A DNA stretch of 40,397 bases from a virus. Its lineage: Duplodnaviria; Heunggongvirae; Uroviricota; Caudoviricetes. Shown piece after piece: positions 14,940-37,228 of this stretch; within the stretch, counting starts at the first letter, position 1; each line of letters begins with the position of its first letter. Made by a program: the position numbers and the translations under genes. The DNA is taken from the IMG/VR virus record IMGVR_UViG_2663763428_000010. One strand, given 5' to 3'. The notes under the pieces were generated by a model that was not told where the DNA came from, did not search any database, and saw nothing but the letters and a program-made list of their open reading frames with translations.

Positions 14940-14954
14940 TTACCTGAAGGGTAA
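14940..14954 (+). promoter_or_regulatory. Operator palindrome (TTACCTGAAGGGTAA) upstream of head gene operon
   Basis: TTACC-N5-GGTAA family member about 90 bp upstream of the ATG at 15045. Confidence 0.5.
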
Positions 14955-20146: not shown

Positions 20147-20751
20147 TGGCCTCTGTAGTAGAGATCTGTAATCGTGCGCTGTCCAATATTGGCAACAGCC
20201 GCAGCATTAACAGCCTGACGGAAGCCAGCAAGGAAGCGGGGGAATGTTCGCTGCACTTTGAGGCCTGCCGTGATGCTGTTCTTTCTGATTTTGACTGGAA
20301 CTTTGCTACCAAACGCGTGGCGCTTGCAGATACGAGCAATCCACCACCTGACTGGGAATATGCGTACCAGTACCCGTCCGATTGTCTGCGCATTACTGAA
20401 ATTATGCTTCCTGGTGTACGCAATCCAACAGCAGCAATGCGCGTTCAGTACGAAGTTGGTGCAGACACCAACGGAACAGGAAAGTTGATCTACACAGACC
20501 AGCCGCAGGCATGGCTCAAGTATGTCTCTCGCGTTTCAGATGTGAACATGTTTGATGCCATTTTTATGGAGGCGTTGGCCTGGCGTCTTGCGGCAGCTAT
20601 TAACATGGCGCTGACTGGGAATGCAGACCTCGGTACGTTTGCCCTCAATATGTACAATCGCGTGATTCTTAGTGCTGGCTCGCATAGCCAGAATGAATCA
20701 CAGGAACCACAGCCACCGGTTGACGAGTTTACCATTGCGAGGTTGTCCTGA
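20146..20751 (+). CDS. Tail tubular protein A-like (T7 gp11 analogue)
   Basis: 201 aa; size and position immediately before an 823 aa protein mirror the T7 gp11/gp12 pair. Confidence 0.5.
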   Translation: MASVVEICNRALSNIGNSRSINSLTEASKEAGECSLHFEACRDAVLSDFDWNFATKRVALADTSNPPPDWEYAYQYPSDCLRITEIMLPGVRNPTAAMRVQYEVGADTNGTGKLIYTDQPQAWLKYVSRVSDVNMFDAIFMEALAWRLAAAINMALTGNADLGTFALNMYNRVILSAGSHSQNESQEPQPPVDEFTIARLS

Positions 20752-23222
20752 TGGCTATCAGTTGGATCCAGCCCAGCTTTGCCGGTGGTGAGATTGGACC
20801 GTCGTTGTACGGTCGTATCGACATGGCGAAGTACCAGGTGGCATTGCGCAAGTGCGATAACTTTATCGTGCGGCAGTATGGCGGCGTTGAGAATCGACCT
20901 GGTACGCGTTTTGTCGGTGCCGCCAAATACCCAAATCGGAAATGCCGCCTGATCCCGTTCCAGTTCTCGACGGTTCAGACTTATGCTCTGGAGTTCGGAC
21001 ACCAGTACATGCGCGTTATCAAAGATGGTGCGTTGGTGCTGAACAGCAGCAATGTTATTTATGAAATTGCCACGCCATATACTGAAGCCGATCTGTTCCG
21101 AATTAAATTCACGCAAAGCGCAGACGTGCTTACGCTGGTTCACCCGGCATACCCGCCGAAAGAGTTGCGCCGCTACGCGCATGACAACTGGCAACTGGTT
21201 GATGTGGTAACGAAGAACGGGCCATTTGAAGATATCAATATTGACGAGTCAGTGACGGTTTATGCCAGCGCCAGCACCGGGACAATTACGTTAACGGCAA
21301 GCGCCTCTATTTTTGGCGCGGAGCAGGCAGGCAAATTGTTCTATCTGGAACAGCCTGCAGTGGATTCAGTGCCGGTATGGGAAACCAGTAAGAGTACGTC
21401 GATTGGCGATATTCGCCGTGCAGACAGTAATTACTATCGCGCCGTTACAGCAGGCAAAACAGGCACTTTGCGCCCTTCGCATACAGAAGGCACATCATGG
21501 GATGGCTGGGGCGGATCCGGTGATGATGATACTGGCATTGAGTGGGAGTATCTGCACAGTGGGTTTGGCATTGCCCGTATCACTGCTGTAAACGGCACTA
21601 CTGCAACTGCCGAGGTGATTTCCTATATCCCTTCGCAGGTCGTTGGCGAGGATAATGCCAGCTATAAATGGGCTAAATATGCCTGGAACAGTGTTAATGG
21701 TTATCCTGGCACTGTTGTTTATTATCAACAACGTCTTTACTTCGCCGCATCGACTGCGTTCCCTCAGACTATCTGGGCCAGCCGTACCGGGGATTATAAG
21801 GATTTTGGCAAAAGCAATCCTACGCAGGATGACGACAGAATTATCTACACCTATGCCGGGCGTCAGGTTAATGAGATCCGCCACCTGATTGATGTCGGCT
21901 CGCTGGTGGCACTGACTTCCGGAGGTGAGTACGTCATCACCGGCGACCAGAACAAAGTGTTAACCCCATCATCATTTGCATTCAGCTCTCAGGGATCAAA
22001 TGGCTCGAGCAATGTCCCACCAATTGCCGTGGCGAATATTGCTCTGTTCGTCCAGGATAAAGGCAGTGTTGTCCGTGATCTGGCCTACTCATTCGATGTT
22101 GACGGCTATCAGGGGAACGACCTGACCATCCTTGCCAATCATCTTTTTCAGAAGCACAGCATTGTTGACTGGTGCTTCTCTATTGTCCCTTACTCCAGCG
22201 CCTTCTGCATTCGTGATGACGGTAAATTACTGGTGATGACCTATTTGCGTGATCAGCAGGTTTTTGCATGGGCACCACAATCCAGTGCCGGAAAATATGA
22301 AAGCACATGCAGCATCAGCGAAGGCAATGAAGATGCAGTGTATTTCGTCGTTAACCGTACCGTTAACGGGCAAACAGTGAGATACATCGAGAGACTGTCC
22401 AGCCGTTTATTTACCAGCGATGAAGATGCTTTCTTTGTTGATTCTGGCCTTAGCTATGATGGAAGAAATACGTCTGACAGAACGATGACCATCACTGGTG
22501 GTTCTGGTGAATGGGATTACCGTGCGGAATATACAATCAGTGTTTCTGGTGGTGCGTACTTCACCGGTAGTGATGTCGGTGCGCAACTACAGTTCCCTTA
22601 TACCGGAGCTGATCCTGATACTGGCGATGAAGTGTCAAAAGAATTACGTTGCGACATTATTTCTGTAACCAGCAATACCGCTGTAGTGGTTCGTGCTAAC
22701 AGGAACGTCCCGCCATCCCTCAGGAATGTGGCCACCACGAACTGGCAGATGGCGCGCCGGACATTTGGAGGCCTGTCTCATCTTGAAGGCCAGACCGTAA
22801 ACATTCTCTCTGATGCGAACGTGGAACCACAGAAAGTGGTTTCCGGAGGTGCCGTCACGCTGGAATCTCCGGGGGCTGTAGTGCACATCGGCCTGCCAAT
22901 AACTGCTGAATTCGAAACACTGGATATCAACATTAACGGACAGGAAACGCTGCTGGACAAAAAACAGGTGATCCCGTCCGTTACTCTGGTTGTGAATGCC
23001 AGTCGCGGCATCTGGGCGACTACGCCCGGCGGTAAATGGTACGAATATCCACAGCGTGAATTCGAGTTCTATGATGATCCTGTTGATGACGCTACCGGAA
23101 AAGTAGAAGTGAAACTGGACAGTAACTGGGGCAAAAACGGACGTGTAAAAATCCGTCAGCTTGACCCGTTGCCGCTGTCTGTTCTTGCCGTTATTCCTCG
23201 CCTTACTGTTGGGGGATTCTGA
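20751..23222 (+). CDS. Tail tubular protein B-like (T7 gp12 analogue)
   Basis: 823 aa; ATGA overlap with preceding gene. Confidence 0.55.
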   Translation: MAISWIQPSFAGGEIGPSLYGRIDMAKYQVALRKCDNFIVRQYGGVENRPGTRFVGAAKYPNRKCRLIPFQFSTVQTYALEFGHQYMRVIKDGALVLNSSNVIYEIATPYTEADLFRIKFTQSADVLTLVHPAYPPKELRRYAHDNWQLVDVVTKNGPFEDINIDESVTVYASASTGTITLTASASIFGAEQAGKLFYLEQPAVDSVPVWETSKSTSIGDIRRADSNYYRAVTAGKTGTLRPSHTEGTSWDGWGGSGDDDTGIEWEYLHSGFGIARITAVNGTTATAEVISYIPSQVVGEDNASYKWAKYAWNSVNGYPGTVVYYQQRLYFAASTAFPQTIWASRTGDYKDFGKSNPTQDDDRIIYTYAGRQVNEIRHLIDVGSLVALTSGGEYVITGDQNKVLTPSSFAFSSQGSNGSSNVPPIAVANIALFVQDKGSVVRDLAYSFDVDGYQGNDLTILANHLFQKHSIVDWCFSIVPYSSAFCIRDDGKLLVMTYLRDQQVFAWAPQSSAGKYESTCSISEGNEDAVYFVVNRTVNGQTVRYIERLSSRLFTSDEDAFFVDSGLSYDGRNTSDRTMTITGGSGEWDYRAEYTISVSGGAYFTGSDVGAQLQFPYTGADPDTGDEVSKELRCDIISVTSNTAVVVRANRNVPPSLRNVATTNWQMARRTFGGLSHLEGQTVNILSDANVEPQKVVSGGAVTLESPGAVVHIGLPITAEFETLDININGQETLLDKKQVIPSVTLVVNASRGIWATTPGGKWYEYPQREFEFYDDPVDDATGKVEVKLDSNWGKNGRVKIRQLDPLPLSVLAVIPRLTVGGF

Positions 23223-23686
23223 TGATCGATGTTCAAATTATTCCCGCTACCGAAGAGCATCTTCAGATGATTTTGCCGGATGTTCGTCAGGCTGATATTG
23301 ACGAACTGTATGCGGTATCGCTGATGACTACCGAAGATGCGCTGCGTGTTGGTCTTCGCACTGCGACTATGGCCTGGTCAGGATTTGCGAACGGAGAACT
23401 GGTAACCATGTTTGGCGTATCTCCGGCGTCAATGATCGGTGGCAATGGTACGCCCTGGCTGGTAGGAACCAGCCGTATTGAAAAATATCAGAAGACATTT
23501 CTTCGCCACTGCCGCCCTGTATTGCAGCAGATGCTGGCAGTTTATCCGCGCCTGGAAAACTACGTCGACGAGCGAAACCATGTTGCCAAAGCATGGCTGC
23601 ACTGGCTTGGATTCAGGCTTGAAGAAGCCGCGCCTTATGGTGCTCTTGGTCTTAATTTCCACAGATTTCACATGGAGAGAAAATAA
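23222..23686 (+). CDS. Internal virion protein candidate
   Basis: 154 aa; position after tail tubular genes. Confidence 0.4.
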   Translation: MIDVQIIPATEEHLQMILPDVRQADIDELYAVSLMTTEDALRVGLRTATMAWSGFANGELVTMFGVSPASMIGGNGTPWLVGTSRIEKYQKTFLRHCRPVLQQMLAVYPRLENYVDERNHVAKAWLHWLGFRLEEAAPYGALGLNFHRFHMERK

Positions 23687-24225
23687 TGTGTAACCCAGCC
23701 ATCGCTTTGGTTGCCGTCACAGTGGCATCCACAGCAGCGTCAATGTACAGCCAGAGCAAGCAGGCAAAATACCAGTCAGCCATAGCAGATCGGAATGCTG
23801 AAATTGCTGAAGCTCAGGCACAGGATTCAATCAATCGTGGGAATATTGAAGCGGATCAGCGTCGTCGTGAAATGCGTCAACGCTCAGGCACTGCGGCGGC
23901 TACTATGGGGGCTACCGGTGCGGAATTAAGTAGCGGAACAGCTCTTGACGTTTTTGCGGATAATGCTCAGTTCGGCACTCTTGATGCGTTAACGACAGTG
24001 AATAATGCTCAGCGTGAGGCATATGGGTATCAGGTTCAGGGAATGAATGCTCAGGCACAGGGGGCTGCTGCTCAGTCGGCTGCTAAATCATCGATGACCA
24101 GCACTTTGTTAACGGCACCACTAAAAGCATACGGTGCATACCAGATGGGCGGCGGAACGTGGAGCCCGTTCTCTCAGAAGGCTGCGCCGATTTCTGCTGC
24201 TGTTGGCACTCCAACCGGTCGATAA
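23686..24225 (+). CDS. Internal virion protein candidate (Ala/Gln-rich)
   Basis: 179 aa; low-complexity helical protein in the ejection-protein block. Confidence 0.4.
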   Translation: MCNPAIALVAVTVASTAASMYSQSKQAKYQSAIADRNAEIAEAQAQDSINRGNIEADQRRREMRQRSGTAAATMGATGAELSSGTALDVFADNAQFGTLDALTTVNNAQREAYGYQVQGMNAQAQGAAAQSAAKSSMTSTLLTAPLKAYGAYQMGGGTWSPFSQKAAPISAAVGTPTGR

Positions 24226-24237
24226 GGGGATAATAAG

Positions 24238-26751
24238 ATGCCAGTTGTACCAACAACATCGGGCCGTCAGGTTCAGAGCAGAGGGATTTCGACGCAGGGA
24301 TTCTCATCGTTTCAGACACCAAATGTCGGTGATGTACTTGGCGATGTTGCAGAGCAATATGCAGGTATTATTGCGCAGGCAAAACAGCGTGCGAATGTTG
24401 CTATGGCTCAGGATGCTTCTCTTAGCTTAAGCCAGATAAGCAGCGATCTGCTGAATAACCCTGAAACAGGTTTGCTTAACCTGAAAGGGAAAAATGCTAT
24501 TGGAAAAGGTCAGGAGTATACGCAGCAGTTTGATGCTCAGATCGAACAACTGGCTATGTCGCTGCCGGATGAACAGGCTCGTAATGCTTTCATGCAGCAG
24601 GCGCAGCAGCAGCGTATTCAGTTCACTACGCAGGCCGGGCGGCACGAGATAGGGCAAATAAATGCCTACGAAGAAGGCCAGTTTCAGGCGACGCTGCTGA
24701 ACAATGGTAAAAATGCCGCAGCATTGTATGGCGACAACGCCGCATACGTATTGGCTAATAAGCAAACTTTCCAGCAAATTGAGGATTACGGCATTGCGCA
24801 TGGCTGGAGCGACGAGCAAATACAGGCCAAGAAAATCGAGTTTAAAGAGAAGGTTGCTGATGCCGCATTGTCCCAGTGGTCGGCAAACAATGCGACCGCA
24901 TTCATCCAAAGTAATGGTGAGTTAAGTGATACTGCTGCTGGATCTCGCCGTGCTGTAGCAGATAGTGGCTATTCCGATCGTGCTCGAGGTATACGCAACA
25001 ATAACCCCGGCAATCTTGAATACAGCAAAACTAATCCGTGGGTAGGCCAGACCGGTGATGATGGCCGATTTGCTAAATTTGAAACGCCTGAACACGGGAT
25101 TCGTGCATTAGGGCGAAACCTGATGTCGTATCAGCGGCAGGGTATTGATACCGTCAACGAGATAATTAATCGCTGGGCACCGCCTACTGATAAAAATGAC
25201 ACAATGTCGTATATCAAAGCCGTGTGCGAACAACTTGGCGTTTCTGCTGATGAGCCTCTCGATGCATCTAATCCGGATACCCTGAAGGCGCTTTGTGCAG
25301 CCATTATCCATCATGAGAACGGTAGCCAGCCATACAGTGATCAGCAGTTAACTGCTGGTGTCAACGCAGCACTTGGTTTATCAACAATTCCAACCAACAC
25401 CAAACGCTATACCGGTAATGCAGCATTCGATGCGGCATCTCCTGAGGCTCAGGCAAGTTTTATGCGGCAGGCGGATCAACTGCGTCGGCAGCAGCAGGCT
25501 GAATATAAAACGATGATTGACAGCCAGGTTCGCGATGCGACGGCTGCGTATATGCGTGGCGTTGAATTTCCTAACCCACCAGGTGAGGCTGATTTTATTG
25601 CAGCTTATGGCGTCAGAGAAGGAAACCTGCGATATACCGAGTTCAGAAATACGCAGATCGCTGGACAGTATATAGGCTCTTTCCGCAACATGCCGACAAG
25701 CAGCATTACAGCATATGTTGAGCAATTACGCCCGGATACTGGTGATACAGGGGAGGGGTATGCGGCACGCGCAGCTCTTTATGACAACGTTGTTTCTGCT
25801 GCAAATCAGGTGATAAAGCAGCGGCAGTCGGATCCTGTGCAGTTCTCTCTTTCCTCCGGACAGGCAAAGCCTATCGACATGAGCAATAAGGATAACTTTG
25901 GACAGAGCGTTGCCTTGCGTGCCGCTCAGGTCAGTGACCTTGCTAAGTCATATGGCACTCCACTGACGTTCTTTTCCAAAGACGAGGCCAATCAGATCGG
26001 TGTTTTCTTTCGTGATGCTCCAGTTTCCCAACAGGCAGCATATCTCGATACCATCAGGCAGAGCACTGGTGGTGGGCAGGTGTATATGTCAGCACTACAG
26101 CAGATCAGTGCCAACGCTCCATCTGCTGCCGTTGCCGGGATACTGATGGACAAGCCTGGTGGTATTTTGGCAGAAAAAAACTGGTTTAATCCGGATGTTT
26201 CCGTGTCTCCTGAAACCGCTGCGCAGACAATTCTTGCTGGCGCGGCGGCTCGTAAAGGTACTGATGATGCGAAAGGTATTCCGATGCCTAAAGATGCTGA
26301 TCTTCGCCTTGAGTTTTCTGACATGGTGAAGGATGCATTTGCTGGTGATGCTCAGGGGGCATCAATGGCATACGAGATCGCAAAGGACTATTACGCTGGT
26401 GTGATGGCGAAAAAAGGCGTGGTATCAGGCGAAATTGACACTGATATCTGGAAACAGGCTGTTAACGTAGCTACAGGTGGCGTGCATGACTATAACGGAA
26501 TGGGGAATGTCCTTTTGCCGTGGGGAATGTCTGCAGAGCAATTCGATAAGCAGGTTAATCAGGCTTGGAATGAACAAGTTGTCGGCACCGGGATAAAAAC
26601 ACCGCCTGGTCAGTATGGTTTGCAAAGTTACGGCGATAGTCAGTACCTGGTGAAACTTGGTACTGGTTATCTGCTGAAAGATGATGGTTCTCCTGTTGTT
26701 CTTGATCTGACACAGAAGCGTCAGAGATTCTCCGGAGATATTCCGCAATGA
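24238..26751 (+). CDS. Internal virion / ejection protein (large)
   Basis: 837 aa; part of three consecutive large proteins typical of podovirus core/ejection proteins. Confidence 0.55.
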   Translation: MPVVPTTSGRQVQSRGISTQGFSSFQTPNVGDVLGDVAEQYAGIIAQAKQRANVAMAQDASLSLSQISSDLLNNPETGLLNLKGKNAIGKGQEYTQQFDAQIEQLAMSLPDEQARNAFMQQAQQQRIQFTTQAGRHEIGQINAYEEGQFQATLLNNGKNAAALYGDNAAYVLANKQTFQQIEDYGIAHGWSDEQIQAKKIEFKEKVADAALSQWSANNATAFIQSNGELSDTAAGSRRAVADSGYSDRARGIRNNNPGNLEYSKTNPWVGQTGDDGRFAKFETPEHGIRALGRNLMSYQRQGIDTVNEIINRWAPPTDKNDTMSYIKAVCEQLGVSADEPLDASNPDTLKALCAAIIHHENGSQPYSDQQLTAGVNAALGLSTIPTNTKRYTGNAAFDAASPEAQASFMRQADQLRRQQQAEYKTMIDSQVRDATAAYMRGVEFPNPPGEADFIAAYGVREGNLRYTEFRNTQIAGQYIGSFRNMPTSSITAYVEQLRPDTGDTGEGYAARAALYDNVVSAANQVIKQRQSDPVQFSLSSGQAKPIDMSNKDNFGQSVALRAAQVSDLAKSYGTPLTFFSKDEANQIGVFFRDAPVSQQAAYLDTIRQSTGGGQVYMSALQQISANAPSAAVAGILMDKPGGILAEKNWFNPDVSVSPETAAQTILAGAAARKGTDDAKGIPMPKDADLRLEFSDMVKDAFAGDAQGASMAYEIAKDYYAGVMAKKGVVSGEIDTDIWKQAVNVATGGVHDYNGMGNVLLPWGMSAEQFDKQVNQAWNEQVVGTGIKTPPGQYGLQSYGDSQYLVKLGTGYLLKDDGSPVVLDLTQKRQRFSGDIPQ

Positions 26752-28550
26752 GTTACTTTGGCCTTAATCCAGTAAACCAGAATCAGCAACTTGACGAAGC
26801 AGCATCAAATCCAGCGGGCTTTAACAGCGATGTTGGTTTTTTCGACAATGCTGTAGGAGCGGCATTGTCTGGTTTGTACTCCGGGCTGGTGGCAAAGCCA
26901 GATCAGTTGCTATGGGCAGGGATGGATAAAATCGTATCCCCGATTGCTCAGTTTATTAACGAAAACACCTCGCTCAATGATACTTCAGTTTCATACATTG
27001 CCGAGCAGAGAAAACTAGCAGAGCAGCAGGTTAAGCGGCTGACGCCTGATGCCGCGACAACCGGAACCGCCGGGCAGGTTCTTTATGGGTTGTTCGATAT
27101 GGGCGGGCAGGCTGTTGTCGGTACAACGCTCGGTGGTCCTGTCGGAGGTGCAGCGGCGGTAACTTCGCTACAGGGTTTTTCTGAGTTTGAACGGCTGACA
27201 GCACAGGGTGTTGATTTCAGGACGGCGCAGGAAGCGGGATTAGTGCAGGGCATTACTGCTGGTGCCGGAACACTGATCCCTATGAGCCTCGGGTTACGTG
27301 CTGGTGGTGCGCTGGCGGAAGGTGTGGCGGCTCAGCTTGCGCGGACGGGTGAGAGTTCAGTGCGACGCGCCGCAGCAACAGCAGTACGTGCAACGCCAGA
27401 TATTGCCTATGCCGCAGGTACAAATATTGCGTTCGGTATGGCACAGCGTGGGCTTACTGCAAAAACGCTTCGTGATGGTGGCTATAGCGAAATGGCTAAC
27501 CAGTATGATGTGTTGGATCGACAGGCAATTGCTATTGATGCTGTTCTTGGGGTGGCGTTTGGTGGTGTCGGCAGATTTATTAACTCTCGCGGCGAGTCTA
27601 CAAGCGCACCAAATTTTTCACCAGTTGATGTCGATGCTGCACTGGCGGCGAATGCCGCTCATCATGCTGAAATTGATATTGCTCCTGGCGTCCCGATCAA
27701 CGTGCTTTCGCGCAATTCTCACATTCAGGCTCTGCGAAAAGCCATGTCTGATGTTAGCCAGGGGAGACCTGTAGACGTTGCCAGCATTGTTGAGTCTGCA
27801 TCTTTCAGTGAAATTCCTGGGCGCAAGAGTCTGCTGTCTCAGGCAGTTAATGAGGCTCTGTCATCTGTAGATGATGGAGTAACGGCGCGCGCTATAGAAA
27901 ATCGGTTGCTTGAAGAACAGGCCGCGCAGCTTTTGCCGCGTGGCGATAGACAGGTTTACCAGTCTGAAATCGCTAATAGCCAACGAATTATTGAAAATCT
28001 CACTGAACAGCGCGCACAAATTCTTGCAGAAGAGCCAACCGGTAGCGGTAAGGCTTTATCTCGTGCTCGATCAGATAAACAGGCCAGACTTCGCGATATT
28101 GACCAACGAATCCGGCAGGCGCAAGAACGCCTGGAATTTTCTCGTAACGCGTTGGCACCGCATGAGCCTGGCGGTCAGTTTTTTGAAGCTCGAGCAGAAC
28201 TGGCACGGCGACAGCAGGCAGAAAGTGAACTTAATGCTCAGGCTGTTTCATTCTATAAAACAGCAGAGGTCAGGACGCCAGACGAAGTAGCTCCTTTTGA
28301 GCCCGGTAAGATATTGCAACAGACAGAACAAAAAATGATGGCAGATCCGGCAGGAGATATTGATCTGCGTATAGCTGAAGACTCGCTGCTTGAATCTCCG
28401 GACATGATAATCACCGTGCTGGATGATGATGGTAATCCACAATCGCGCAGTGCGCGTGAAGTACTGGATGAAGCGAACAGGGAAAGTGAGCAGGCAATAC
28501 AGGATTCCAGCCTGTTTGATGTTGCTGTGGCGTGTTTCTTGAGAGGTTAA
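26748..28550 (+). CDS. Internal virion / ejection protein with Gly-rich hydrophobic segments
   Basis: 600 aa; ATGA overlap; glycine/alanine-rich hydrophobic stretches suggest membrane insertion. Confidence 0.55.
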   Translation: MSYFGLNPVNQNQQLDEAASNPAGFNSDVGFFDNAVGAALSGLYSGLVAKPDQLLWAGMDKIVSPIAQFINENTSLNDTSVSYIAEQRKLAEQQVKRLTPDAATTGTAGQVLYGLFDMGGQAVVGTTLGGPVGGAAAVTSLQGFSEFERLTAQGVDFRTAQEAGLVQGITAGAGTLIPMSLGLRAGGALAEGVAAQLARTGESSVRRAAATAVRATPDIAYAAGTNIAFGMAQRGLTAKTLRDGGYSEMANQYDVLDRQAIAIDAVLGVAFGGVGRFINSRGESTSAPNFSPVDVDAALAANAAHHAEIDIAPGVPINVLSRNSHIQALRKAMSDVSQGRPVDVASIVESASFSEIPGRKSLLSQAVNEALSSVDDGVTARAIENRLLEEQAAQLLPRGDRQVYQSEIANSQRIIENLTEQRAQILAEEPTGSGKALSRARSDKQARLRDIDQRIRQAQERLEFSRNALAPHEPGGQFFEARAELARRQQAESELNAQAVSFYKTAEVRTPDEVAPFEPGKILQQTEQKMMADPAGDIDLRIAEDSLLESPDMIITVLDDDGNPQSRSAREVLDEANRESEQAIQDSSLFDVAVACFLRG

Positions 28551-28555
28551 ATTAA

Positions 28556-31030
28556 ATGAGACAGGAATGTATACAAGCGGTCCAGCAGGCGGCGCAGCGC
28601 ACGTTAACGGCGCGAGAAATACAGAACATTGAAGACCGCATTTATCGAAATATGCGCTCCATTGCTCGTGATGACCCGATGTCGTGGCGACAACTTTCCG
28701 AATCAGAACGGTTGTATCGTGCAGCACAATTGGCATCTGAAGAATTACAGCGAGAAGCGGCATTAAAGAAACGTCGTGTGGCTCTCACTATAGCCGCACG
28801 TCAGAGATTGGATAAATTTATCAATAGCTATCAAGGGGCTGATGGGAAACTTGGCGCTCTTAACCGTACTATTGCTTTTAATGCAGACGGTAAATCGAAT
28901 TTCCTCTCTGTTGAATCCAGAACAAAAGCCACTCGTGATTATGCATTGAGTCAATTGCAGGAGGCATTTGAAGCAGTTGATCCTCGCTTTTTTGGTCTGT
29001 TTGAAGATGAAGCGGGCGTACGTGACCTGGTATATGAAATGCGGGGGCAAAATACTGGCAATGCTAAAGCAAGAAAAGGTGCTAAGGCGTGGAGAGAAGT
29101 TACAGAGCTGCTGCGCCGCCGGTTTAATGATGCTGGTGGGGACATTGGCTATCTCGAAAACTGGGGGATCCCTCAACATCATTCTATGGAAAAGGTTGGG
29201 GCGGTATCAAAGGATAAGTGGGTTAGCGATGTTATAGGTAAGCTGGATCGCAAATATTATACCCGAGCCGATGGACAACTGATGAACGATGCCGAGTTGT
29301 CTGCATTTCTTGGAGAGGCTTATAACACGATCGCTACTGGTGGGCTGAATAAGCTTACTGATACCGGAATGCGAATTTCCGGCGCACGTGCTAACCGTGG
29401 TAATGCATCACGACAGATACATTTCAAAGATGCAGATTCCTATCTCCAATATCAACAACTTTATGGCGATCGCTCTCTATGGGAAATCATGGTCGGTCAC
29501 CTGGAAGGTATCAGTAAAGATATTTCTCTGGTGGAAACATATGGTCCAAACCCCGATCATGTTTTCCGCTCACTTCTTGATCAGGTTAAGGCAGAAACGG
29601 CAACAGCTAACCCGAGTAAAACCGGTAAAGTCGAGCGGCTGGCGAACAACACAGAGAATCTGTACAACTTTATTTCCGGAAAGACACAGCCTGTAGCGAA
29701 TCCGCACATCGCGCAATGGTCTGACAATATCCGCAACTGGCTGGTTGCCAGCAGACTCGGATCCGCGTTGCTGTCATCGTTCTCTGATCTTGGAACCATG
29801 TATCTGTCTGCGAAGGTGACCAACCTTCCAATGAACCAGTTATTCCGCAACCAGCTTGAAGCTATGGACCCAACGAACCGTACTGAGCTTGCGCGGGCGC
29901 GACGCGCTGGTCTGGCGATGGAATCTCTACTTGGCAGCGTTAACCGCTGGGCGATGGATAATATGGGGCCGTCTGTGTCTCGTTGGGCTGCAACGGCGGT
30001 AATGCGTGCTAGTGGGCTTACAGCATGGTCAGATGCGCACAAGCGCGCCTATGGCGTAACCATGATGGGAAGCCTGGGAGAAGTAGTGTCACGGACACCA
30101 GACCTTCATAGCCTCGATGATTCTGATTTTCGTATCCTGAAAAGCAAAGGGATTACTGACACAGACTGGAGCGTATGGAGGCTGGCGCAACAGGAGGACT
30201 GGGGGAACGGCAATAATACGATGTTGACACCGGAAAGCATTATGCGTATCCCTGATTCAGCAGTTAAACATCTTGGTGAGCCTGAACGCGTGAAATTTGA
30301 GGCAATGCGTAAATTGCTCGGTGCCGTAACTGAAGAAGTTGATATGGCTGTTATTACACCGGGAGCACGTGAGCAACTGATAACTGGTTCTGGTATTCAG
30401 CGTGGAACATGGAAAGGTGAATTAACGAGAAGTGTTTTCCTGTTTAAATCGTTCCCTATCTCGGTGGTTATGCGTCACTGGTCACGCGCTATGGGTATGC
30501 CGTCTGCTGGTGGGCGTGCGGCATATATTGCGACGTTTATTGCCAGTACGACCATTCTTGGCGCTTTGTCGCAGCAACTTAACGACCTTGCGTCTGGTCG
30601 TAATCCTCGAGAGATGACAGGAGAAGATGCCGCAAAATTCTGGCTTGGTGCTCTACTGAAAGGTGGTGGTCTTGGCCTTTACGGTGACTTTTTATTGTCA
30701 GATCACACTAGGTACGGAAGCGGCGCGCTGGCGTCGATGCTTGGCCCGGTAGCTGGTCTGGTTGATGACGTAGTGAAGATTGCTCAGGGCATACCGTTAA
30801 ATGCTGTGGAAGGGAAGAATGAGCAGACTGGTGGTGATCTGGTTAAGCTGGGGAAAGGTTTGATGCCTGGTGCGAATCTCTGGTACTTGAAGGCGGCTCT
30901 CGATCACATGATCTTTAACCAGATGCAGGAGTATTTTTCACCAGGCTATTTGCGTAAAATGGAGCAACGTTCGAAGAAAGAGTTTAACCAGACATACTGG
31001 TGGAGACCTCAGGATGTCACTCCGCAATAA
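28556..31030 (+). CDS. Internal virion / ejection protein (large)
   Basis: 824 aa ORF completing the ejection-protein block. Confidence 0.55.
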   Translation: MRQECIQAVQQAAQRTLTAREIQNIEDRIYRNMRSIARDDPMSWRQLSESERLYRAAQLASEELQREAALKKRRVALTIAARQRLDKFINSYQGADGKLGALNRTIAFNADGKSNFLSVESRTKATRDYALSQLQEAFEAVDPRFFGLFEDEAGVRDLVYEMRGQNTGNAKARKGAKAWREVTELLRRRFNDAGGDIGYLENWGIPQHHSMEKVGAVSKDKWVSDVIGKLDRKYYTRADGQLMNDAELSAFLGEAYNTIATGGLNKLTDTGMRISGARANRGNASRQIHFKDADSYLQYQQLYGDRSLWEIMVGHLEGISKDISLVETYGPNPDHVFRSLLDQVKAETATANPSKTGKVERLANNTENLYNFISGKTQPVANPHIAQWSDNIRNWLVASRLGSALLSSFSDLGTMYLSAKVTNLPMNQLFRNQLEAMDPTNRTELARARRAGLAMESLLGSVNRWAMDNMGPSVSRWAATAVMRASGLTAWSDAHKRAYGVTMMGSLGEVVSRTPDLHSLDDSDFRILKSKGITDTDWSVWRLAQQEDWGNGNNTMLTPESIMRIPDSAVKHLGEPERVKFEAMRKLLGAVTEEVDMAVITPGAREQLITGSGIQRGTWKGELTRSVFLFKSFPISVVMRHWSRAMGMPSAGGRAAYIATFIASTTILGALSQQLNDLASGRNPREMTGEDAAKFWLGALLKGGGLGLYGDFLLSDHTRYGSGALASMLGPVAGLVDDVVKIAQGIPLNAVEGKNEQTGGDLVKLGKGLMPGANLWYLKAALDHMIFNQMQEYFSPGYLRKMEQRSKKEFNQTYWWRPQDVTPQ

Positions 31031-31530: not shown

Positions 31531-31556
31531 AGGCCGCTTTCGCGGCCTTGTTTTTA
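31531..31556 (+). terminator. Rho-independent terminator
   Basis: AGGCCGC-TTTC-GCGGCCT hairpin followed by TGTTTTTA. Confidence 0.7.
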
Positions 31557-31715
31557 ACGAATGCCACCGCCGCCCGGGCGGGAATCCGCAGAACGCCCAC
31601 CGCAGCGGGAGCCGTCAGCGGCAGTATCGCTGTCGTGCTGACAACGGCCGGCAAAGGCCTGAGTTGAAGCTACCAGAGACAACAAAACGAACAGTGCAGC
31701 AAATGCTTTTTTCAT
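31554..31715 (-). CDS. Small signal-peptide protein candidate
   Basis: MKKAFAALFVLLSLVASTQAFA signal-like N-terminus followed by a short GC-rich Cys-containing tail; weak RBS. Confidence 0.25.
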   Translation of the reverse strand: MKKAFAALFVLLSLVASTQAFAGRCQHDSDTAADGSRCGGRSADSRPGGGGIR

Positions 31716-31798
31716 TGTGAAAAATTTCCATCTATAAGCCACCTCAATGTGGCGTCAATGAGTGTAGCACTGACTTTTGTTTCGTCCATAAAAAACTA

Positions 31799-32311
31799 CT
31801 ATGCAGGCTTTTTGGATTTGTACGAATAATCCCACGGATAAACATTTCTACTAAGTGGAGCTGTATTCGTTCGTTCATGAAATAATTTTGTGAAATTCAA
31901 TACGGAATCCATCCAAACTTTTGCGTTAGCTTTGGTGTGTGCGGGCGGGTCCCAATAAGCTAGTAAGGCTGCATCTCTTATTTCATTGACTGCATATATG
32001 AGATATGCGTTACTGGTTGGTTTTGGCCTGTAATTTCCTTGTTCATCAATCAATCCATATGACCACTCATCCCAACACTGTTCAGTACATGAGTATGAAT
32101 ATGATGCATATTCACCAATATTGACATGAACCTTTCTGAGATGGAAGCCTAATACTTCCTCTGGTCTTTCAAAAAGAGTATCTTTTCCCAGATCAGGATG
32201 ATGACCATGACGCCAGTGTTGTTTAAAAGCATCTTTTAGCGAAATCAGAAAGTCATCAGTTTTAAACTCACCAGTAGGTATAACCTTCCCGCTATACTCA
32301 CTCAAAAACAT
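31799..32311 (-). CDS. Toxin-like protein, tentatively YafO-family
   Basis: 170 aa; segments HGHHPDLGKDTLF, LRKVHVNI and TSNAYLIY...LLAYWDPPAH resemble E. coli YafO as recalled from memory; ATG embedded in the end of the upstream gene with GGAAGAGGAA RBS. Confidence 0.45.
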   Translation of the reverse strand: MFLSEYSGKVIPTGEFKTDDFLISLKDAFKQHWRHGHHPDLGKDTLFERPEEVLGFHLRKVHVNIGEYASYSYSCTEQCWDEWSYGLIDEQGNYRPKPTSNAYLIYAVNEIRDAALLAYWDPPAHTKANAKVWMDSVLNFTKLFHERTNTAPLSRNVYPWDYSYKSKKPA

Positions 32312-32624
32312 CGAATTCCTCTTCCTTCATATGCGTTTCTAATGAGTTAAGCTGGCGGAAAGATATCTCTTTTGATTCTGCAGATGAGAGTTTTTTTATC
32401 CGCTTTATATTCTTTGTGATAGGAATAGACATTGTATGCACATCAGCGGATGCTCTTGGCTTTGTGCTGATAAAAATATGGCGCAATGCCGCATTTTCAC
32501 TATTGAACGAGCCAATAGCTGATTTACGTGCTACAACCTTACCAGTAAAAATACGACTCTTGCTACGCTTTGCATGAGTTCCGCTTCTTACCGGACCTCT
32601 CATCACGAATCCAAGTTTTGTCAT
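32298..32624 (-). CDS. Basic small protein, candidate partner/antitoxin of the downstream toxin-like gene
   Basis: 108 aa; GGAG RBS; overlaps the downstream gene by 14 nt; acidic C-terminus EEEFDVFE. Confidence 0.45.
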   Translation of the reverse strand: MTKLGFVMRGPVRSGTHAKRSKSRIFTGKVVARKSAIGSFNSENAALRHIFISTKPRASADVHTMSIPITKNIKRIKKLSSAESKEISFRQLNSLETHMKEEEFDVFE

Positions 32625-32666
32625 CTTTAATCTCCGGTAAGTTACAGGTATAAAATAAAAACAGGT

Positions 32667-32681
32667 TTACCTTTAAGGTAA
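32667..32681 (-). promoter_or_regulatory. Operator palindrome (TTACCTTTAAGGTAA) upstream of the two-gene toxin-like operon
   Basis: Perfect TTACC-N5-GGTAA about 45 bp upstream of the start at 32624, in an AT-rich promoter-like region. Confidence 0.5.
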
Positions 32682-32753
32682 TAGTACGCTATTCACCCCC
32701 GGTCTGCAATCTGTACAGAATTATTTAAAGGCACATCCCTGTGCCGCCGCCCG

Positions 32754-33464
32754 TCAGAAGAACCCTGCCTTGTCGTTGATGTACTCCGCGTGCGTCTGGA
32801 TATCACGCAGGCATTTACTCACACCGACGATGTAGCAGAACATGGTGGTCAGCTCCGCCGCCGCGCCCGATACGTCGTGCCCGTCGTCCTGCAACTGATT
32901 CAGCAGATTCATCAGCAATGAGTTCTCCGTCAGGCCGAGAACACCAGACGGCGAATGAATCAGACTGCGGTAGCCGGGCTTCAGTGGGGCACTGTAGGTT
33001 TTGTTCTCTATCTTCATTGCCTGCATCACTGCTGACGCCGTGGCGTTGGCTACCTGGTCGGCAACCATCTTTATGCGTTCTTCCTGCGGGAACGAGTTTT
33101 TAATGTAGCTTCCTGTTCGACGGATCTGAGGAAGTACCTCACCTGTAACCCATTTACGAAAGCGGTAGGGGATAGTGCCTAGTGTCACTGCGTCGCGGCA
33201 GCGGAGGATCAGTGTGTAGAGGCCTGACTCGGAGATGATGTTGATCTCTTTTACTCGGCTGTCAAAAATTGCACGATGTTCATGCCCTATGTTGAACATA
33301 GACCTTTCATCATCATCCAGTTTTTCAAGTGCTTGGGTGACGTTTTGGATACGCAGCGCACTACAAACGTCTTGGGCTACAAACCATGGTTGGCCATCGA
33401 TAATGATGGAACGGATAGGGTTAACAGATTCAAATTTGAAGATGGCAGTTTGAGCATTAGCCAT
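32754..33464 (-). CDS. Bro-N domain antirepressor-like protein
   Basis: N-terminal Bro-N-like segment; ATG at 33464 with GGAG RBS; C-terminal domain homologous to the small protein at 34613-34870. Confidence 0.65.
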   Translation of the reverse strand: MANAQTAIFKFESVNPIRSIIIDGQPWFVAQDVCSALRIQNVTQALEKLDDDERSMFNIGHEHRAIFDSRVKEINIISESGLYTLILRCRDAVTLGTIPYRFRKWVTGEVLPQIRRTGSYIKNSFPQEERIKMVADQVANATASAVMQAMKIENKTYSAPLKPGYRSLIHSPSGVLGLTENSLLMNLLNQLQDDGHDVSGAAAELTTMFCYIVGVSKCLRDIQTHAEYINDKAGFF

Positions 33465-33733
33465 GGTGGTTATCTCCACTTAGTGATTTTAATCACCACC
33501 GCAACGCCAATTACTGGTGGTGAACTGGACAAGGTTGGCGTACCGGCCTAAGTGGTACCGGTGTCCTTTCGGACCCCTGCCCAGCCCACCATAATTCGGA
33601 TATAGCTGTGCTTAACGCATAAAAAAACCACGTCTGGCGTGGTATGCGCCACTTAGTAACCCGGGACGCCAATCCCGGCACTGGATTTTGCCAGTGCCCG
33701 ATTACTATGGCACAAGAGGAGTGCGATGTAAAT

Positions 33734-33748
33734 TTACCGCAAAGGTAA
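33734..33748 (-). promoter_or_regulatory. Operator palindrome (TTACCGCAAAGGTAA) upstream of antirepressor gene
   Basis: Perfect TTACC-N5-GGTAA in the long leader upstream of the Bro-N gene. Confidence 0.5.
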
Positions 33749-33826: not shown

Positions 33827-33841
33827 TTACCTTTAAGGTAA
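33827..33841 (+). promoter_or_regulatory. Operator palindrome (TTACCTTTAAGGTAA) upstream of membrane zinc-ribbon gene
   Basis: Perfect palindrome 20 bp upstream of ATG 33862; TTGATC -35-like hexamer at 33804-33809. Confidence 0.5.
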
Positions 33842-33861: not shown

Positions 33862-34590
33862 ATGGAAGTTTTCTGGATAGTTGTTGGTGTGGTTGCGGTG
33901 ATTATTTACGTTATCAACCAGAACAAGACTAAGATCTCTGATCGTACGGTCGTTAATCATAACAAAACGATAAAGACCGAAGATGGGGAGATAACGATTA
34001 ATCGTACACAGGTGATAGAACACACCTCTACTCAGTTTCAAAAAACTGGAGGTAATGCGCCTGATATTTCCGCACCTCCTGCTTATGATAGTGCGGTAAT
34101 CCAGACATATTATAAACAGCAGGAGTTAGCAAAAGAGAGGCAACTGATTCAGCCAAAGCCGTTTACAGCTGAGCTTCCACCTGGAGTGTCAACGCGTCCG
34201 GCATATCATGGAAGATTCCCTGGTGATGACATATCGTCTCAGTCATCTAAAAAAGCACCTCAGGCAGTATCAGAGCCAGCAAGAATAACTTCTGTATCGC
34301 CGCCAAAAGAAGAATCAGCTAACAGAGTTTCAAGTGGTAGCAAGCAGTGCTTGCGATGCAGAATAAACCTTCCATATGAAAAATTCAGGAAATCGTCAAA
34401 AAATCCAGATGGATTGACTAAGTGGTGTGCAAGGTGTCTCGATGGCCCAAAGAATACACGCCATATGAAGTGGTGCCCAATTTGTAATGTCCGCAGAAAA
34501 CGAACCAGCTTTTACCCTAATAATCAAAATGCGGACGGCTTAATGGCATGGTGCAAAACGTGCTGGGATGAGCACAAAGCGAAACGATAG
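33862..34590 (+). CDS. Membrane-anchored protein with two tandem C4 zinc-ribbon repeats
   Basis: 242 aa; N-terminal TM helix; two repeats of CxxC-x21/22-CxxC sharing DGL...WC...C. Confidence 0.6.
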   Translation: MEVFWIVVGVVAVIIYVINQNKTKISDRTVVNHNKTIKTEDGEITINRTQVIEHTSTQFQKTGGNAPDISAPPAYDSAVIQTYYKQQELAKERQLIQPKPFTAELPPGVSTRPAYHGRFPGDDISSQSSKKAPQAVSEPARITSVSPPKEESANRVSSGSKQCLRCRINLPYEKFRKSSKNPDGLTKWCARCLDGPKNTRHMKWCPICNVRRKRTSFYPNNQNADGLMAWCKTCWDEHKAKR

Positions 34591-34614
34591 GCCGCTCTTG
34601 CGGCCTTTAAATTT
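34589..34614. terminator. Hairpin terminator between convergent genes
   Basis: AGGCCGC-TCTT-GCGGCCT followed by TTAAATTT. Confidence 0.45.
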
Positions 34615-34870
34615 ACCGGGTTTGTTTTCGTAATTGTTCGGCACAATAGTCGAGATGTGTTTGCAGATCCCGCATAGACATCTGTGAGCTGGTGACGTAG
34701 TTAATCAGTGCAGTCAGTTCGGCAAGTGGGCCATCGACATTAAATCCATCCTTATCGAGATCCCGGAGTAATTTCATCAAGTGCGATCCCTCCACCAGTG
34801 ACCTGACGCCTCCCGGCGTGTGAATCCTTTCGGTAAATCCGTCTTCCAGTGGATAGTGATACTGCTGCAT
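34613..34870 (-). CDS. Small protein paralogous to the C-terminal domain of the Bro-N antirepressor
   Basis: 85 aa from ATG at 34870 with GGAGAAG RBS; alignable by eye to Bro-N protein residues about 150-235 (shared LRDIQTH / MRDLQTH block). Confidence 0.55.
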   Translation of the reverse strand: MQQYHYPLEDGFTERIHTPGGVRSLVEGSHLMKLLRDLDKDGFNVDGPLAELTALINYVTSSQMSMRDLQTHLDYCAEQLRKQTR

Positions 34871-34946: not shown

Positions 34947-34961
34947 TCACCTGAAAGGTAA
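34947..34961. promoter_or_regulatory. Operator palindrome variant (TCACCTGAAAGGTAA) between small Bro-C paralog and tailspike
   Basis: One-mismatch family member in the divergent intergenic region 34871-35065. Confidence 0.45.
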
Positions 34962-35065: not shown

Positions 35066-37228
35066 ATGACGGTCTCAACCGAAGTTAACCACAACGAATA
35101 CACAGGTAATGGTGTTACGACCACATTCCCTTACACCTTTAGGGTTTTCAATAAATCTGATCTGGTGGTGCAGGTGATTGACCTTGAAGAAAATATCGCT
35201 GTGCTGGCTCCTGATACTGATTACACAGTTACCGGGGCGGGAAGCTATTCAGGTGGGAGCGTTGTGTTGATGTCACCTCTGGCCAACGGATGGCAAATCT
35301 CTATCTCACGTGACTTGCCTGTTACCCAGGAGACTGATCTGCGTAACCAGGGGAAATTTTTCGCAGAGGTACATGAGGATGCGTTCGACAAGCTGACCAT
35401 GCTTATCCAGCAGTGCTTCAGCTTTCTCCGCCTGGCGCTGCGTAAGCCGTCGTTCATCGCGAACTATTACGACGCACTCAACAACCGCATTCGTAATCTG
35501 CGTGACCCGTCACAGGCACAGGATGCAGCAACAAAATCTTATGTGGACTCGGGAGATAATGACAGCACTCATCATGCAGATGGTCTTTTCCAGCGAACTT
35601 TGCGAGTTCCGGAAAGTCAGGTAGGAATCATGGCATCTGTACGAGCCAGAGCAAATATGCTGATTGGATTCAATGACCAGGGGGATCCTGTTCCGATTGC
35701 AGGGCAAACTGAAACGGCAGATTTGGCAATCAAGCTAGCATCAAAAGACGGTGCTGGCTTAGTTGCTACGGAAACAGGAAGAACGGTAGAGGCTTCTATT
35801 CGTGCTGCGTCTGGATCATCACAGGCCCTTTTCCCAAATTTCGTCAATAAATTAACAGCTTATCGGCATGGGGTTTCTGGCTATCAGAACTTATTTCGAC
35901 TCTATGGGTTTGGTTCTTCTGTTGGGGTTGGTGCTACGCTTCCTGATCCAGCAACACAGGCACCAGTTGCTAAATTTTTTGAGTATATGAACGATACGCT
36001 AAATAAGCAGCGTATTTATCCCATTAACTTCACAAACAAATCTGTTAATGGTTCAACGATAAATAATTTTATTGTTAACCAATGGCCTGAAGTTGTTGCT
36101 GAAGGAATATATCCTGATATTGCTTTGTTTATATATGGAATGAATGATTTTCCTACCGCACAATATAATGCCGGGCAAACATTCAATGAAAACGGATTTA
36201 AACAGCGCCTTCGAAATGCTATTAATTTAGTCAGGGAGGCCGGCGGGGATGTTGTGCTAACAACCACACCTCATCCGAATATTTCTGAATATAGCTGGAG
36301 CATGCCGGCTGGAATTTCTCAAATATGGCCTTCATATTCTCCGGCCCCAGTCTCTGATAATAACATTATACCATCTGCCGCAAACTCAAATGTCACGTTT
36401 GAGTGGAATGGGGTAAATATTCAAGCAGGTGTCCGCTTCCTTCGAGGAAACGATGCGATCAGGAAAATCGCTGTAGAAATGGGTTGCGTGCTTATCGATG
36501 TGGAAAAATACTGGTTTGATGCTGTTGCTAAATATGGTGAAACGGCATTATTTGACCGGACCCCTGAAATACAGACTGTTCACCCTAACCTTTTAGGTCA
36601 TCAGCAATCATACTGGCTGGCTTTCGAGGATTTCTTTAGAAATCTGGACAGGAACGGATGGATTCCTGCAGTTGCAAATCATTATGATGTTTTTGATGTC
36701 GGTGGAAAAGCGACTTTCCCTAATCCACGTACTGCAGATATTGATCTGCAGAGCAACGGGATCAGAGATAATGCATACATTCATCGAGATCAATTTGCTC
36801 GTCCTCTACTGACAATCGGTCATACTGGCGTGAGAACCAAGACCTGGTATACCTCTCAAGACCCTGCAGCAAATGCAGGTTATAGCATTAGCTGGATAGA
36901 TTACGGAACTCGTTTTCAAGGTCTGGTAAATACAGGTGAAGTCAAATCCATCGCAATACCAAACAGAACGACGCAGAGAATCCTTATCGATGCTTGGTCT
37001 TCTGCACAAAACACCTGGGCTGAATGTTTAGAGCTACTCGTTGCTAACCGTGAGGGTACCATTTCAATATCGATCACAGGTGAACTCGATACCACTCCAC
37101 CGGCGGGGGGCGGAACGTCAGGCGGACGGCGCTTATTCTCTATTTCAGCGGGGAGTGGTGTATTAAACATAACTGTTAATGTTGATCTCTCTACGCTAAA
37201 AGTTAGAGTCGGCGGTTTCAGCGCTTAA
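35066..37228 (+). CDS. Tailspike / tail fiber with T7 gp17-like N-terminal adaptor and SGNH esterase-like domain
   Basis: 720 aa; N-terminus NHNEYTGNGVTTTFPYTF typical of T7-type fiber N-domains; SGNH-like blocks GFGSS, GMND and VHPN. Confidence 0.75.
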   Translation: MTVSTEVNHNEYTGNGVTTTFPYTFRVFNKSDLVVQVIDLEENIAVLAPDTDYTVTGAGSYSGGSVVLMSPLANGWQISISRDLPVTQETDLRNQGKFFAEVHEDAFDKLTMLIQQCFSFLRLALRKPSFIANYYDALNNRIRNLRDPSQAQDAATKSYVDSGDNDSTHHADGLFQRTLRVPESQVGIMASVRARANMLIGFNDQGDPVPIAGQTETADLAIKLASKDGAGLVATETGRTVEASIRAASGSSQALFPNFVNKLTAYRHGVSGYQNLFRLYGFGSSVGVGATLPDPATQAPVAKFFEYMNDTLNKQRIYPINFTNKSVNGSTINNFIVNQWPEVVAEGIYPDIALFIYGMNDFPTAQYNAGQTFNENGFKQRLRNAINLVREAGGDVVLTTTPHPNISEYSWSMPAGISQIWPSYSPAPVSDNNIIPSAANSNVTFEWNGVNIQAGVRFLRGNDAIRKIAVEMGCVLIDVEKYWFDAVAKYGETALFDRTPEIQTVHPNLLGHQQSYWLAFEDFFRNLDRNGWIPAVANHYDVFDVGGKATFPNPRTADIDLQSNGIRDNAYIHRDQFARPLLTIGHTGVRTKTWYTSQDPAANAGYSISWIDYGTRFQGLVNTGEVKSIAIPNRTTQRILIDAWSSAQNTWAECLELLVANREGTISISITGELDTTPPAGGGTSGGRRLFSISAGSGVLNITVNVDLSTLKVRVGGFSA

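Follow-up and report, generated by a model that had tools for sequence, protein, structure and literature searches.

The YafN-YafO pair of Escherichia coli is encoded in the dinB-yafN-yafO-yafP operon (toxin family PF13957), and YafO ranks among the least studied toxins of the RelE type; sequence search of the PDB detects no solved YafO structure. In the prophage-borne PaaR2-PaaA2-ParE2 modules of E. coli O157, a small, disordered antitoxin without a DNA-binding domain neutralizes a toxin of the RelE/ParE fold through a helix at its C-terminus, and a separate repressor controls transcription. RegB of phage T4 is an RNase of the RelE fold that acts on transcripts on behalf of the phage. Among phage immunity regions, immI of P1 and P7 is composed of the c4 antisense RNA, icd and ant, and Gifsy-1 carries isrK-anrP. 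Pfam assigns YafO to the RelE/ParE BECR superfamily, with the gene order antitoxin then toxin (PMC11980606), and prophage YafO genes have often been reported as orphan toxins (PMC10449497).

The stretch of DNA analyzed here (the window, 40,397 nucleotides; IMG/VR record IMGVR_UViG_2663763428_000010) is a complete epsilon15/phiV10-like (Uetakevirus-type) E. coli prophage bounded by the integrase gene (1-1251) and by the lysis genes, the last of which ends at 39130; the genome of E. coli WCHEC005784 matches it at 100% identity across the full length. It contains a pair of overlapping genes that is probably a variant type II toxin-antitoxin (TA) system, judged from sequence comparison: a putative YafO-type RNase with a non-Phd partner, the transcription of which would be delegated to the regulatory circuit of the phage.

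Prophage setting and organization of the gene pair

The pair has the location that the earlier note on this DNA had given it: on one side lies the virion core/ejection block (20751-31030), which includes a core protein of the T7 gp14 family, and on the other the tailspike gene (35066-37228). Several further genes are found in this interval, namely those of a membrane protein of 98 aa, a signal-peptide protein of 53 aa, a Bro-N antirepressor and proteins of 242 and 85 aa. Both genes of the pair are on the minus strand: the 170-aa toxin-like protein, which belongs to a long YafO subfamily, is encoded at 31799-32311, and the 108-aa basic partner, a candidate antitoxin (PHROG 5933, function unknown), at 32298-32624. 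The ORF coordinates bear out the 14-nt overlap read previously (32298-32311; toxin ATG at 32311-32309, partner stop codon TGA at 32300-32298). The proposed translational coupling was likewise recovered by direct sequence reading of the junction (32298-32321, minus strand), the ribosome site of the toxin, GAGGA (32321-32317), being located within the partner ORF 5 nt upstream of the toxin ATG; the partner has its own site, GGAGA (32635-32631), 6 nt upstream of its ATG.

The two genes fill an exchangeable cargo segment of 869 bp (31796-32664, minus strand) which is delimited by breaks of blastn identity, one end lying at the operator edge and the other 3 nt beyond the toxin stop codon. With a GC content of 39.0% versus 49.2% for the prophage, a value equally low in only 0.3% of equal-sized windows, the segment is indeed the AT-rich insert that the note had described. 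Downstream of the cassette follows the phage-backbone gene of the 53-aa signal-peptide protein (31554-31715, minus strand; PHROG 14503, "membrane associated protein"); the terminator scan revealed no terminator-like site between the toxin gene and this gene, which is probably co-transcribed with the cassette. The converging transcription units are ended by a GC-rich hairpin terminator (31531-31548, terminator scan), and the matching site carries a terminator annotation in phiV10. On the other side of the cassette, the sequence contains the minus-strand hairpin GGCACA-GGGA-TGTGCC followed by TTTAAATAATT (32730-32745, direct sequence reading), likely a weak terminator of the upstream antirepressor gene; an equivalent hairpin is kept in the loci L003, L004 and L006. 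A "Gp49 family protein" encoded elsewhere in the window (13981-14337) was considered as a second RelE-type toxin and rejected, being a member of the N4 gp49/Sf6 gene 66 family.

The YafO-related protein and its partner

The 170-aa protein matched the YafO_toxin profile PF13957 over positions 7-100 of 101 with 20.1 bits (E 7e-4), a score below the Pfam gathering threshold of 25. Among 32 members of its family, 17 gave a match to this profile at E<=0.01 (best E 1e-7), and the relative of phage TL-2011b reached 26.3 bits, above the threshold. The alignment by hhalign of the 32-sequence family profile with YafO of E. coli K-12 extended over 113 columns (90% probability, E 1.6e-6), and the resemblance to YafO that the earlier note had tentatively proposed is thereby substantiated; the protein has the RelE/ParE (BECR) fold of the YafO family. 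An exhaustive phmmer search over 1.8 billion cluster representatives retrieved only 42 relatives, nearly all of which are 160-200 aa long. Residues F29, G36, G42, H62, W80, Y106 and H125 are invariant in the alignment of these relatives and R112 is nearly invariant in the family; all family-invariant residues except W80 are identical in E. coli YafO (F29/F25, G36/G32, G42/G39, H62/H60, Y106/Y88, H125/H109), as is D44 (D44/D41). Judged from this conservation, H62, Y106 and H125 are candidate catalytic residues, with D44 as a further residue identical in E. coli YafO. The profile comparison places the additional Cys/Tyr/Trp-rich insertion that had been noticed before at about residues 66-95; relative to E. 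coli YafO it comprises about 20-30 residues, including C75, C79, W80 and W83.

The pI of the toxin is 6.4 and that of E. coli YafO 7.0. Homologues from Enterobacter, Serratia, Salmonella and Raoultella show 66-82% identity, and the values of pN (0.13-0.23) and of the saturated pS (0.76-0.83) indicate strong purifying selection at the sequence level. RefSeq applies the label "type II toxin-antitoxin system YafO family toxin" to this protein in over 100 E. coli genomes, and the toxin assignment as such is therefore not new; what is defined here, from sequence relationships, is a long YafO subfamily that is almost exclusively phage-borne. The literature search found no published experiments on this subfamily. 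Foldseek comparison of the toxin with PDB and BFVD revealed no significantly similar structure, and sequence searches of the PDB, whether with the toxin itself, its family profile or E. coli YafO, yielded nothing meaningful (matches to fucose lectins at E about 1 are due to low-complexity Trp/Cys similarity). Neither protein of the pair had a relevant match in NCBIfam or a match to a defence system in PADLOC-DB 2.0 at E<=1.

The profile searches of both proteins that the earlier note had recommended had a divided outcome: the toxin matched the YafO profile, and the partner matched no known family in Pfam, NCBIfam or PADLOC. The partner is basic overall (pI 10.6), with an acidic stretch formed by its last 20 residues (pI 4.6). 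Its ends are conserved (N-terminal MTKLGFVM, C-terminal ..KLSSAESKEISFRQLNSLETHMKEEEFDVFE, also given as ..SFRMLNSLEDRMKEEEFDVFE), their codons showing synonymous variation, and the middle is variable. The conserved acidic C-terminal helix comprises about residues 78-108; in the AF2 model of the partner alone, which is of low confidence (pLDDT 62.6), a helix of residues 81-107 is the sole ordered element and the rest is mostly disordered. Partner homologues are 43-50% identical, with pN 0.29-0.41 and pS 0.44-0.61, and by identity as well as pN the partner diverges faster than the toxin. This anatomy would fit an antitoxin that folds onto its toxin. Counter-points to be recorded for the pair are the sub-threshold Pfam score and the missing significant Foldseek match of the toxin, and the basic character of the partner, unlike that of most antitoxins.

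In a survey of viral contigs for toxin relatives, run with an 11-sequence alignment, a small same-strand gene was located upstream of the toxin relative in 72 of 75 contigs or loci. The encoded partners fall into five classes: class A, the type of the window; class B, ending in ..FDGPE; class C, ending in ..YDDAE; class D, of 62 aa and starting with MTTFSFVM; and class E, the 59-aa type of TL-2011b. A C-terminal module of about 30 residues with the consensus K-φ-S/T-x-x-E-x-x-x-φ-S-x-R/x-φ ... F/Y-D/E-x-x-E (φ, hydrophobic) is common to classes A-D, and the N-termini vary (about 25-140 residues). When about 1,546 ORF segments were searched with the class A profile, ranks 1, 7 and 8 went to three other partners; after addition of these three, a class D partner was the top new match (E 0.008). 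Direct hhalign comparison gave E values of 2.5e-5 for classes A and D, 6e-4 for A and B, and 9e-3 for A and C, with no significant similarity between A and E (E 0.41). The TL-2011b-type (class E) partners and the partner of locus L020 were also considered as relatives of the window partner and set aside, the profile comparison having demonstrated no similarity.

No known DNA-binding domain was detected in any partner class; the DNA-binding, autoregulating antitoxin of type II systems thus has no counterpart in the window partner, the N-terminus of which is predicted to be disordered. The partner is also no recognizable Phd/YefM antitoxin, in line with the earlier remark that it does not resemble YafN: it has no Pfam match, BLASTP found nothing, hhalign aligned only the C-terminal tails of partner and YafN without significance (E 0.11, probability 0.5%), and the class profiles yielded nothing against YafN. 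The resemblance of EEEFDVFE in the partner to DDDFNDFKE in YafN was rejected as evidence of homology, the similarity not being significant, and is kept as a lead only.

Operator, promoter and cargo slot

The operator palindrome TTACC-N5-GGTAA (TTACCTTTAAGGTAA, 32667-32681) abuts the -10 hexamer of a putative sigma-70 promoter of the cassette (32681-32709, minus strand), which was read from the sequence as -35 TTGCAG (32709-32704), a 17-nt spacer and -10 TACTAT (32686-32681), with the operator directly after. The consensus promoter scan did not call this promoter, which was deduced because of its resemblance to other operator-linked promoters: the leftward early promoter (near 4966-5010) has the same layout, TTGACA-16-TAATTA with the operator directly after, and the -10/operator arrangement recurs at 8133. 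The palindrome was not reported by the inverted-repeat finder because its arms are short.

The window contains ten perfect copies of TTACC-N5-GGTAA and 15 with at most one mismatch, as compared with 0.57 expected by chance; none of 100 shuffles reached 15 copies. The gene of the prophage repressor (5100-5684) is flanked by copies on both sides (4966 and 5028; 5740 and 5788), and further copies are situated at 6125, 8071, 8133, 11790, 11808, 14940, 33734, 33827 and 34947, almost all of them being intergenic and overlapping promoter elements. The number of copies and their presence around the repressor gene identify the palindrome as a phage-wide operator; an ATTACC...GGTAAT operator is reportedly described in the epsilon15 genome paper. 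Of the earlier proposal that the pair stands behind an operator palindrome of its own, the palindrome itself was found as described, but its ownership was not, the motif being spread over the phage genome and also present around the repressor gene.

The repressor is 100% identical to those of phiV10 and phage ZX5, and when the ZX5 repressor was overexpressed, free phage disappeared and the transcripts of the lysis genes fell by over 99.9% (PMC9782041). In view of this identity and of the operator layout, the cassette promoter is predicted to be controlled by the prophage repressor and not by autoregulation. Across the viral contigs, the operator was found upstream of the partner start, usually at 30-60 nt, in 20 of 21 cassettes of class A, 5 of 9 of class B, all three of class C and 31 of 32 of class E; it was present in none of the five class D cassettes, which are sited in sipho- or myovirus tail modules.

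In blastn comparison with TL-2011b and HEMP4, near-identity extends up to 31795 and resumes from 32665, with unrelated sequence between these positions. The slot so defined contains a YafO-type toxin of 33% identity (E 1e-27) with a 59-aa partner in TL-2011b, proteins of PHROG 5954 and PHROG 8607 in HEMP4, and no cargo in phiV10, for which reason the cassette must be dispensable for lytic growth. As promoter and operator are common to unrelated cargos, both belong to the phage backbone; this argues against the self-regulated moron envisaged in the earlier note, a reading that needs correction, and leads one to expect that the prophage repressor is in control. Rfam detected isrK and C4 antisense RNAs immediately ahead of the gene for the Bro-N antirepressor, with a repressor operator upstream of both, an arrangement that marks a P1-like immI operon; the slot is located at the 3' end of this c4/isrK-antirepressor operon.

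The slot flanks are present in 534 of 5,426 complete E. coli genomes (about 10%). In 69 of these 534 the slot holds the cargo of the window, and the cassette occurs anywhere in the genome in 114; other slot contents include DUF4760, DUF2335 and hypothetical genes. The pair recurs with an identical 14-nt overlap in Salmonella, Serratia and metagenomic contigs, the overlap and the ribosome site within it being kept from genus to genus, and it was found in three kinds of mobile element, i.e. epsilon15-like phages, a P22-like immI region and an AlpA/integrase island; the copy in the latter keeps the operator, and no cognate repressor is evident in the 8.5 kb examined. Together with the operator-less class D cassettes, this island implies that the pair must be capable of staying balanced where the repressor is absent. 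The generic gene layout of type II TA systems (small, adjacent, co-directional and coupled genes that are mobilized as a unit) is present, and the sequence comparisons support the view that the pair behaves as a mobile unit like TA cassettes.

Functional interpretation and comparison with known systems

According to the TA reading that we prefer, the 170-aa protein would be a YafO-family endoribonuclease arresting translation by mRNA cleavage, by analogy to E. coli YafO, with an active site comprising the residues common to both proteins (H62, Y106, H125 and D44). The partner would be made first from the common mRNA, and translational coupling would provide it in an amount at least equal to that of the toxin; its basic, lineage-variable N-terminal part would be disordered, and the acidic C-terminal helix (about residues 78-108) would neutralize the toxin by docking. 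Transcription would start from the backbone promoter whose -10 hexamer abuts the phage-wide operator, at a level set by the prophage repressor; control by this repressor is predicted over autoregulation because the partner has no recognizable DNA-binding domain and the promoter at the operator is backbone. The cassette would be one of several alternative cargos of a recombination slot. Likely roles are competition between phages, abortive infection or selfish maintenance; defence is a plausible function for the cargo of a prophage slot, though PADLOC matches neither protein. For a classical TA system a tension arises at this point, since full silencing of the promoter in lysogens combined with a labile antitoxin would leave new lysogens poisoned; it would be resolved either by partial repression at the single operator or by a module that acts on derepression.

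The prediction of repressor control invites a different explanation, namely that the toxin is a host-takeover RNase of the lytic phase, silent in the lysogen and expressed early after induction or infection, which remodels or degrades host or early transcripts, its partner then being a dosing or timing inhibitor and not an addiction antidote. A junction of operator and -10 hexamer identical in layout to those of the leftward early promoter and of the site at 8133, the backbone nature of promoter and operator shared by all slot cargos, the position downstream of the antirepressor operon controlled by repressor and c4, and the experimentally observed global shut-off of lytic genes by the identical ZX5 repressor would all agree with such a function. 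We nevertheless hold it to be unlikely: in the AlpA/integrase island and in class D the pair stands alone, without an evident repressor or without the operator, respectively, phiV10 grows lytically without the cassette, and a single operator may repress only partially.

Of similarly low probability is a purely selfish TA hitch-hiker which persists by post-segregational or anti-deletion effects and benefits neither phage nor host. Patchy occurrence (69 of 534 slot-bearing E. coli genomes), foreign GC content, the presence of the same pair in unrelated mobile contexts and the lack of a PADLOC match to known defence systems are what such an element would display; the many alternative cargos of the slot, as in accessory or defence hot spots of prophages, and the strong purifying selection on the toxin speak against it, although both are compatible with selfishness.

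A third possibility, to which we likewise give little credence, takes up the derepression alternative: RNase and short-lived inhibitor would be made only on derepression, as an induction-coupled switch for host shut-off or suicide. Any cassette inserted into the slot may come under the master repressor of the prophage, the trigger may be SOS induction, the action of the antirepressor, or inactivation of the repressor by a superinfecting phage, and the N-terminal modules of the partners may be swappable trigger sensors on a constant toxin-docking helix.

Very improbable, finally, is the absence of any TA function, i.e. a non-toxic BECR-fold RNA-binding or regulatory protein beside an unrelated basic, nucleic-acid-binding operon neighbor: the Pfam score below threshold, the insignificant Foldseek results, the partner without an antitoxin family and the reversal of the usual TA charges (near-neutral toxin, basic partner) could be read in this way, but the pI of E. 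coli YafO itself is 7.0, the His, Tyr and Asp residues shared with YafO are invariant family-wide, and the tight, conserved coupling, the parallel variation of partner class and toxin lineage and the constant C-terminal module are hard to explain without physical interaction.

Through these comparisons, orphan phage YafO toxins gain a candidate antitoxin family with a constant C-terminal helix and variable N-terminal modules. This family, the long YafO subfamily and the precisely bounded, operator-gated cargo slot are the new, modest results; the earlier interpretation of the pair is partly supported. Provided that the regulatory prediction is true, the pair would represent a TA cassette whose transcriptional control has been handed to the prophage repressor, which bears on the timing of toxin expression from prophages. 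The bounded slot, with its flanks in about one tenth of the complete E. coli genomes, is a convenient site to search for accessory and defence genes. Current understanding is not overturned by these results, which add a modest variation to a well-known theme.

With YafN-YafO of E. coli the window pair shares a homologous toxin of near-neutral pI, the order antitoxin then toxin, and a small upstream partner with an acidic ..F-D-x-F-E tail resembling ..DDDFNDFKE of YafN (a similarity that is not significant). It differs in the length of the toxin (170 versus 132 aa), in the insertion and a C-terminal extension, in the partner, which is basic and without a Phd/YefM domain whereas YafN is acidic, in the gene junction (overlap of 14 nt, in contrast to 2 nt between yafN and yafO) and in context, i.e. 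prophage cargo instead of the SOS dinB operon. The relationship to HigB2 of Vibrio cholerae (5mje/5jaa) and to the RelE, HigB, YoeB and YafQ mRNases is distant (6-16% identity, Foldseek not significant); in higBA the genes stand in the opposite order, and the antitoxins possess DNA-binding domains. In common with immI of P1 and P7 and with isrK-anrP of Gifsy-1, isrK/C4 RNAs and an antirepressor are present, in the neighborhood of the cassette and not within it; P1 immI contains icd and no YafO-type pair. The gp44/gp45 genes of TL-2011b occupy the same slot, with the same promoter and operator, and consist of a YafO-family toxin gene after a small overlapping gene, but the partner is of 59 aa (PHROG 6685) and the overlap 26 nt, compared to 108 aa and 14 nt in the window. 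The PaaR2-PaaA2-ParE2 module resembles the pair in the disordered partner, the C-terminal helix, the separate repressor and the prophage location, features that are predicted for the window; its toxin is of the ParE type instead of a YafO-type RNase, and its regulator is a dedicated third gene, whereas the window cassette would be governed by the master repressor of the prophage through a genome-wide operator.

Cargo slot and mobility of the toxin cassette

The hot spot in which the cassette of the 108-aa partner and the 170-aa YafO-type toxin resides could be delimited exactly in the window (31796-32664) and in two comparison loci (L001, 3279-4050; L012, 2795-3448), and its flanks were found in 534 of 5,426 E. 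coli genomes. Among related phages, this slot is occupied in TL-2011b by a YafO pair of its own type and in HEMP4 by PHROG 5954 and 8607 proteins of no assigned function; DUF4760, DUF2335 and other hypothetical genes serve as cargo in E. coli genomes. Downstream of the slot, a minus-strand gene (31554-31715; PHROG 14503, "membrane associated protein") that is probably co-transcribed with the cassette encodes a 53-aa signal-peptide protein with a Gly/Arg-rich tail. Its reading frame runs further upstream in HEMP4 (MDETKVS...); in the window, the upstream frame (to 31795) is closed by a stop codon just before the ATG.

The cassette also occurs in another setting: in the comparison loci L004 and L005 (3202-4940) it lies, together with the operator, inside an integrase/AlpA island, adjoined by a Rap1a-family gene, and retains a remnant of the 3' end of the antirepressor gene. 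To judge from this arrangement, the island cassette evidently left a phage and carried its upstream control region along.

Operator motif and prophage repressor

The motif (A)TTACC-N5-GGTAA(T) is present in the window in 10 perfect copies, and in 15 when one mismatch is allowed, versus 0.57 expected; a similar operator has reportedly been described for epsilon15. Matches are located at 4966-4980, 5028-5042, 5740-5754, 5788-5802, 6125-6139, 8071-8085, 8133-8147, 11790-11804, 11808-11822, 14940-14954, 32667-32681, 33734-33748, 33827-33841 and 34947-34961, whereas the operator-like copy at 35229-35243 is probably a chance occurrence. Since the repressor gene has copies on both sides, and most transcription units (those of the head, terminase and tailspike genes among them) have a copy overlapping their -35/-10 elements, the distribution of the motif suggests a repressor acting directly on the whole genome in the manner of P1 C1.

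The 194-aa prophage repressor (5100-5684, minus strand) comprises two helix-turn-helix regions (YdaS-like, residues 21-61; HTH_3, residues 106-147), and no peptidase S24 domain was detected in it; this domain make-up fits a prophage induced via an antirepressor rather than by RecA-mediated self-cleavage of the repressor.

In the small-terminase ORF (region 11744-11830), the copies at 11790 and 11808 fall inside the N-terminus annotated from TTG 11744 and are directly followed by an in-frame ATG at 11825, which is therefore probably the true start. Between the terminase and portal modules, a tRNA-Arg gene (14544-14617, minus strand) is adjoined by the gene of a protein (13981-14337) that was considered as a RelE-type Gp49 toxin and rejected as such, its family being N4 gp49/Sf6 gene 66.

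Antirepressor leader and its neighbours

On the plus strand, divergent from the antirepressor leader and with an operator copy in front, the gene at 33862-34590 encodes a 242-aa protein (PHROG 6762). Near its C-terminus are two Cys-rich repeats resembling zinc ribbons, which weakly match endonuclease VII, Lar-like and Stc1 models. Adjoining the tailspike, an 85-aa protein (34613-34870, minus strand) is encoded behind its own operator copy (34947); because the PHROG models that it matches (450/15539/1760) are also those matched by the last third of the Bro-N antirepressor, this protein resembles a separately encoded copy of that protein's C-terminal domain.

Ahead of the gene for the Bro-N antirepressor (32754 to 33464 or 33479, minus strand), its leader contains three minus-strand Rfam matches: C4 antisense RNA (33513-33596; 63.6 bits) and the Hfq-binding RNA isrK (33621-33697; 67.7 bits), both above the gathering score, and the c4 a1/b1 target (33658-33710), just below threshold. 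By these matches, the leader is an immI control region like those of P1/P7 and Gifsy-1, here in an epsilon15-like podophage.
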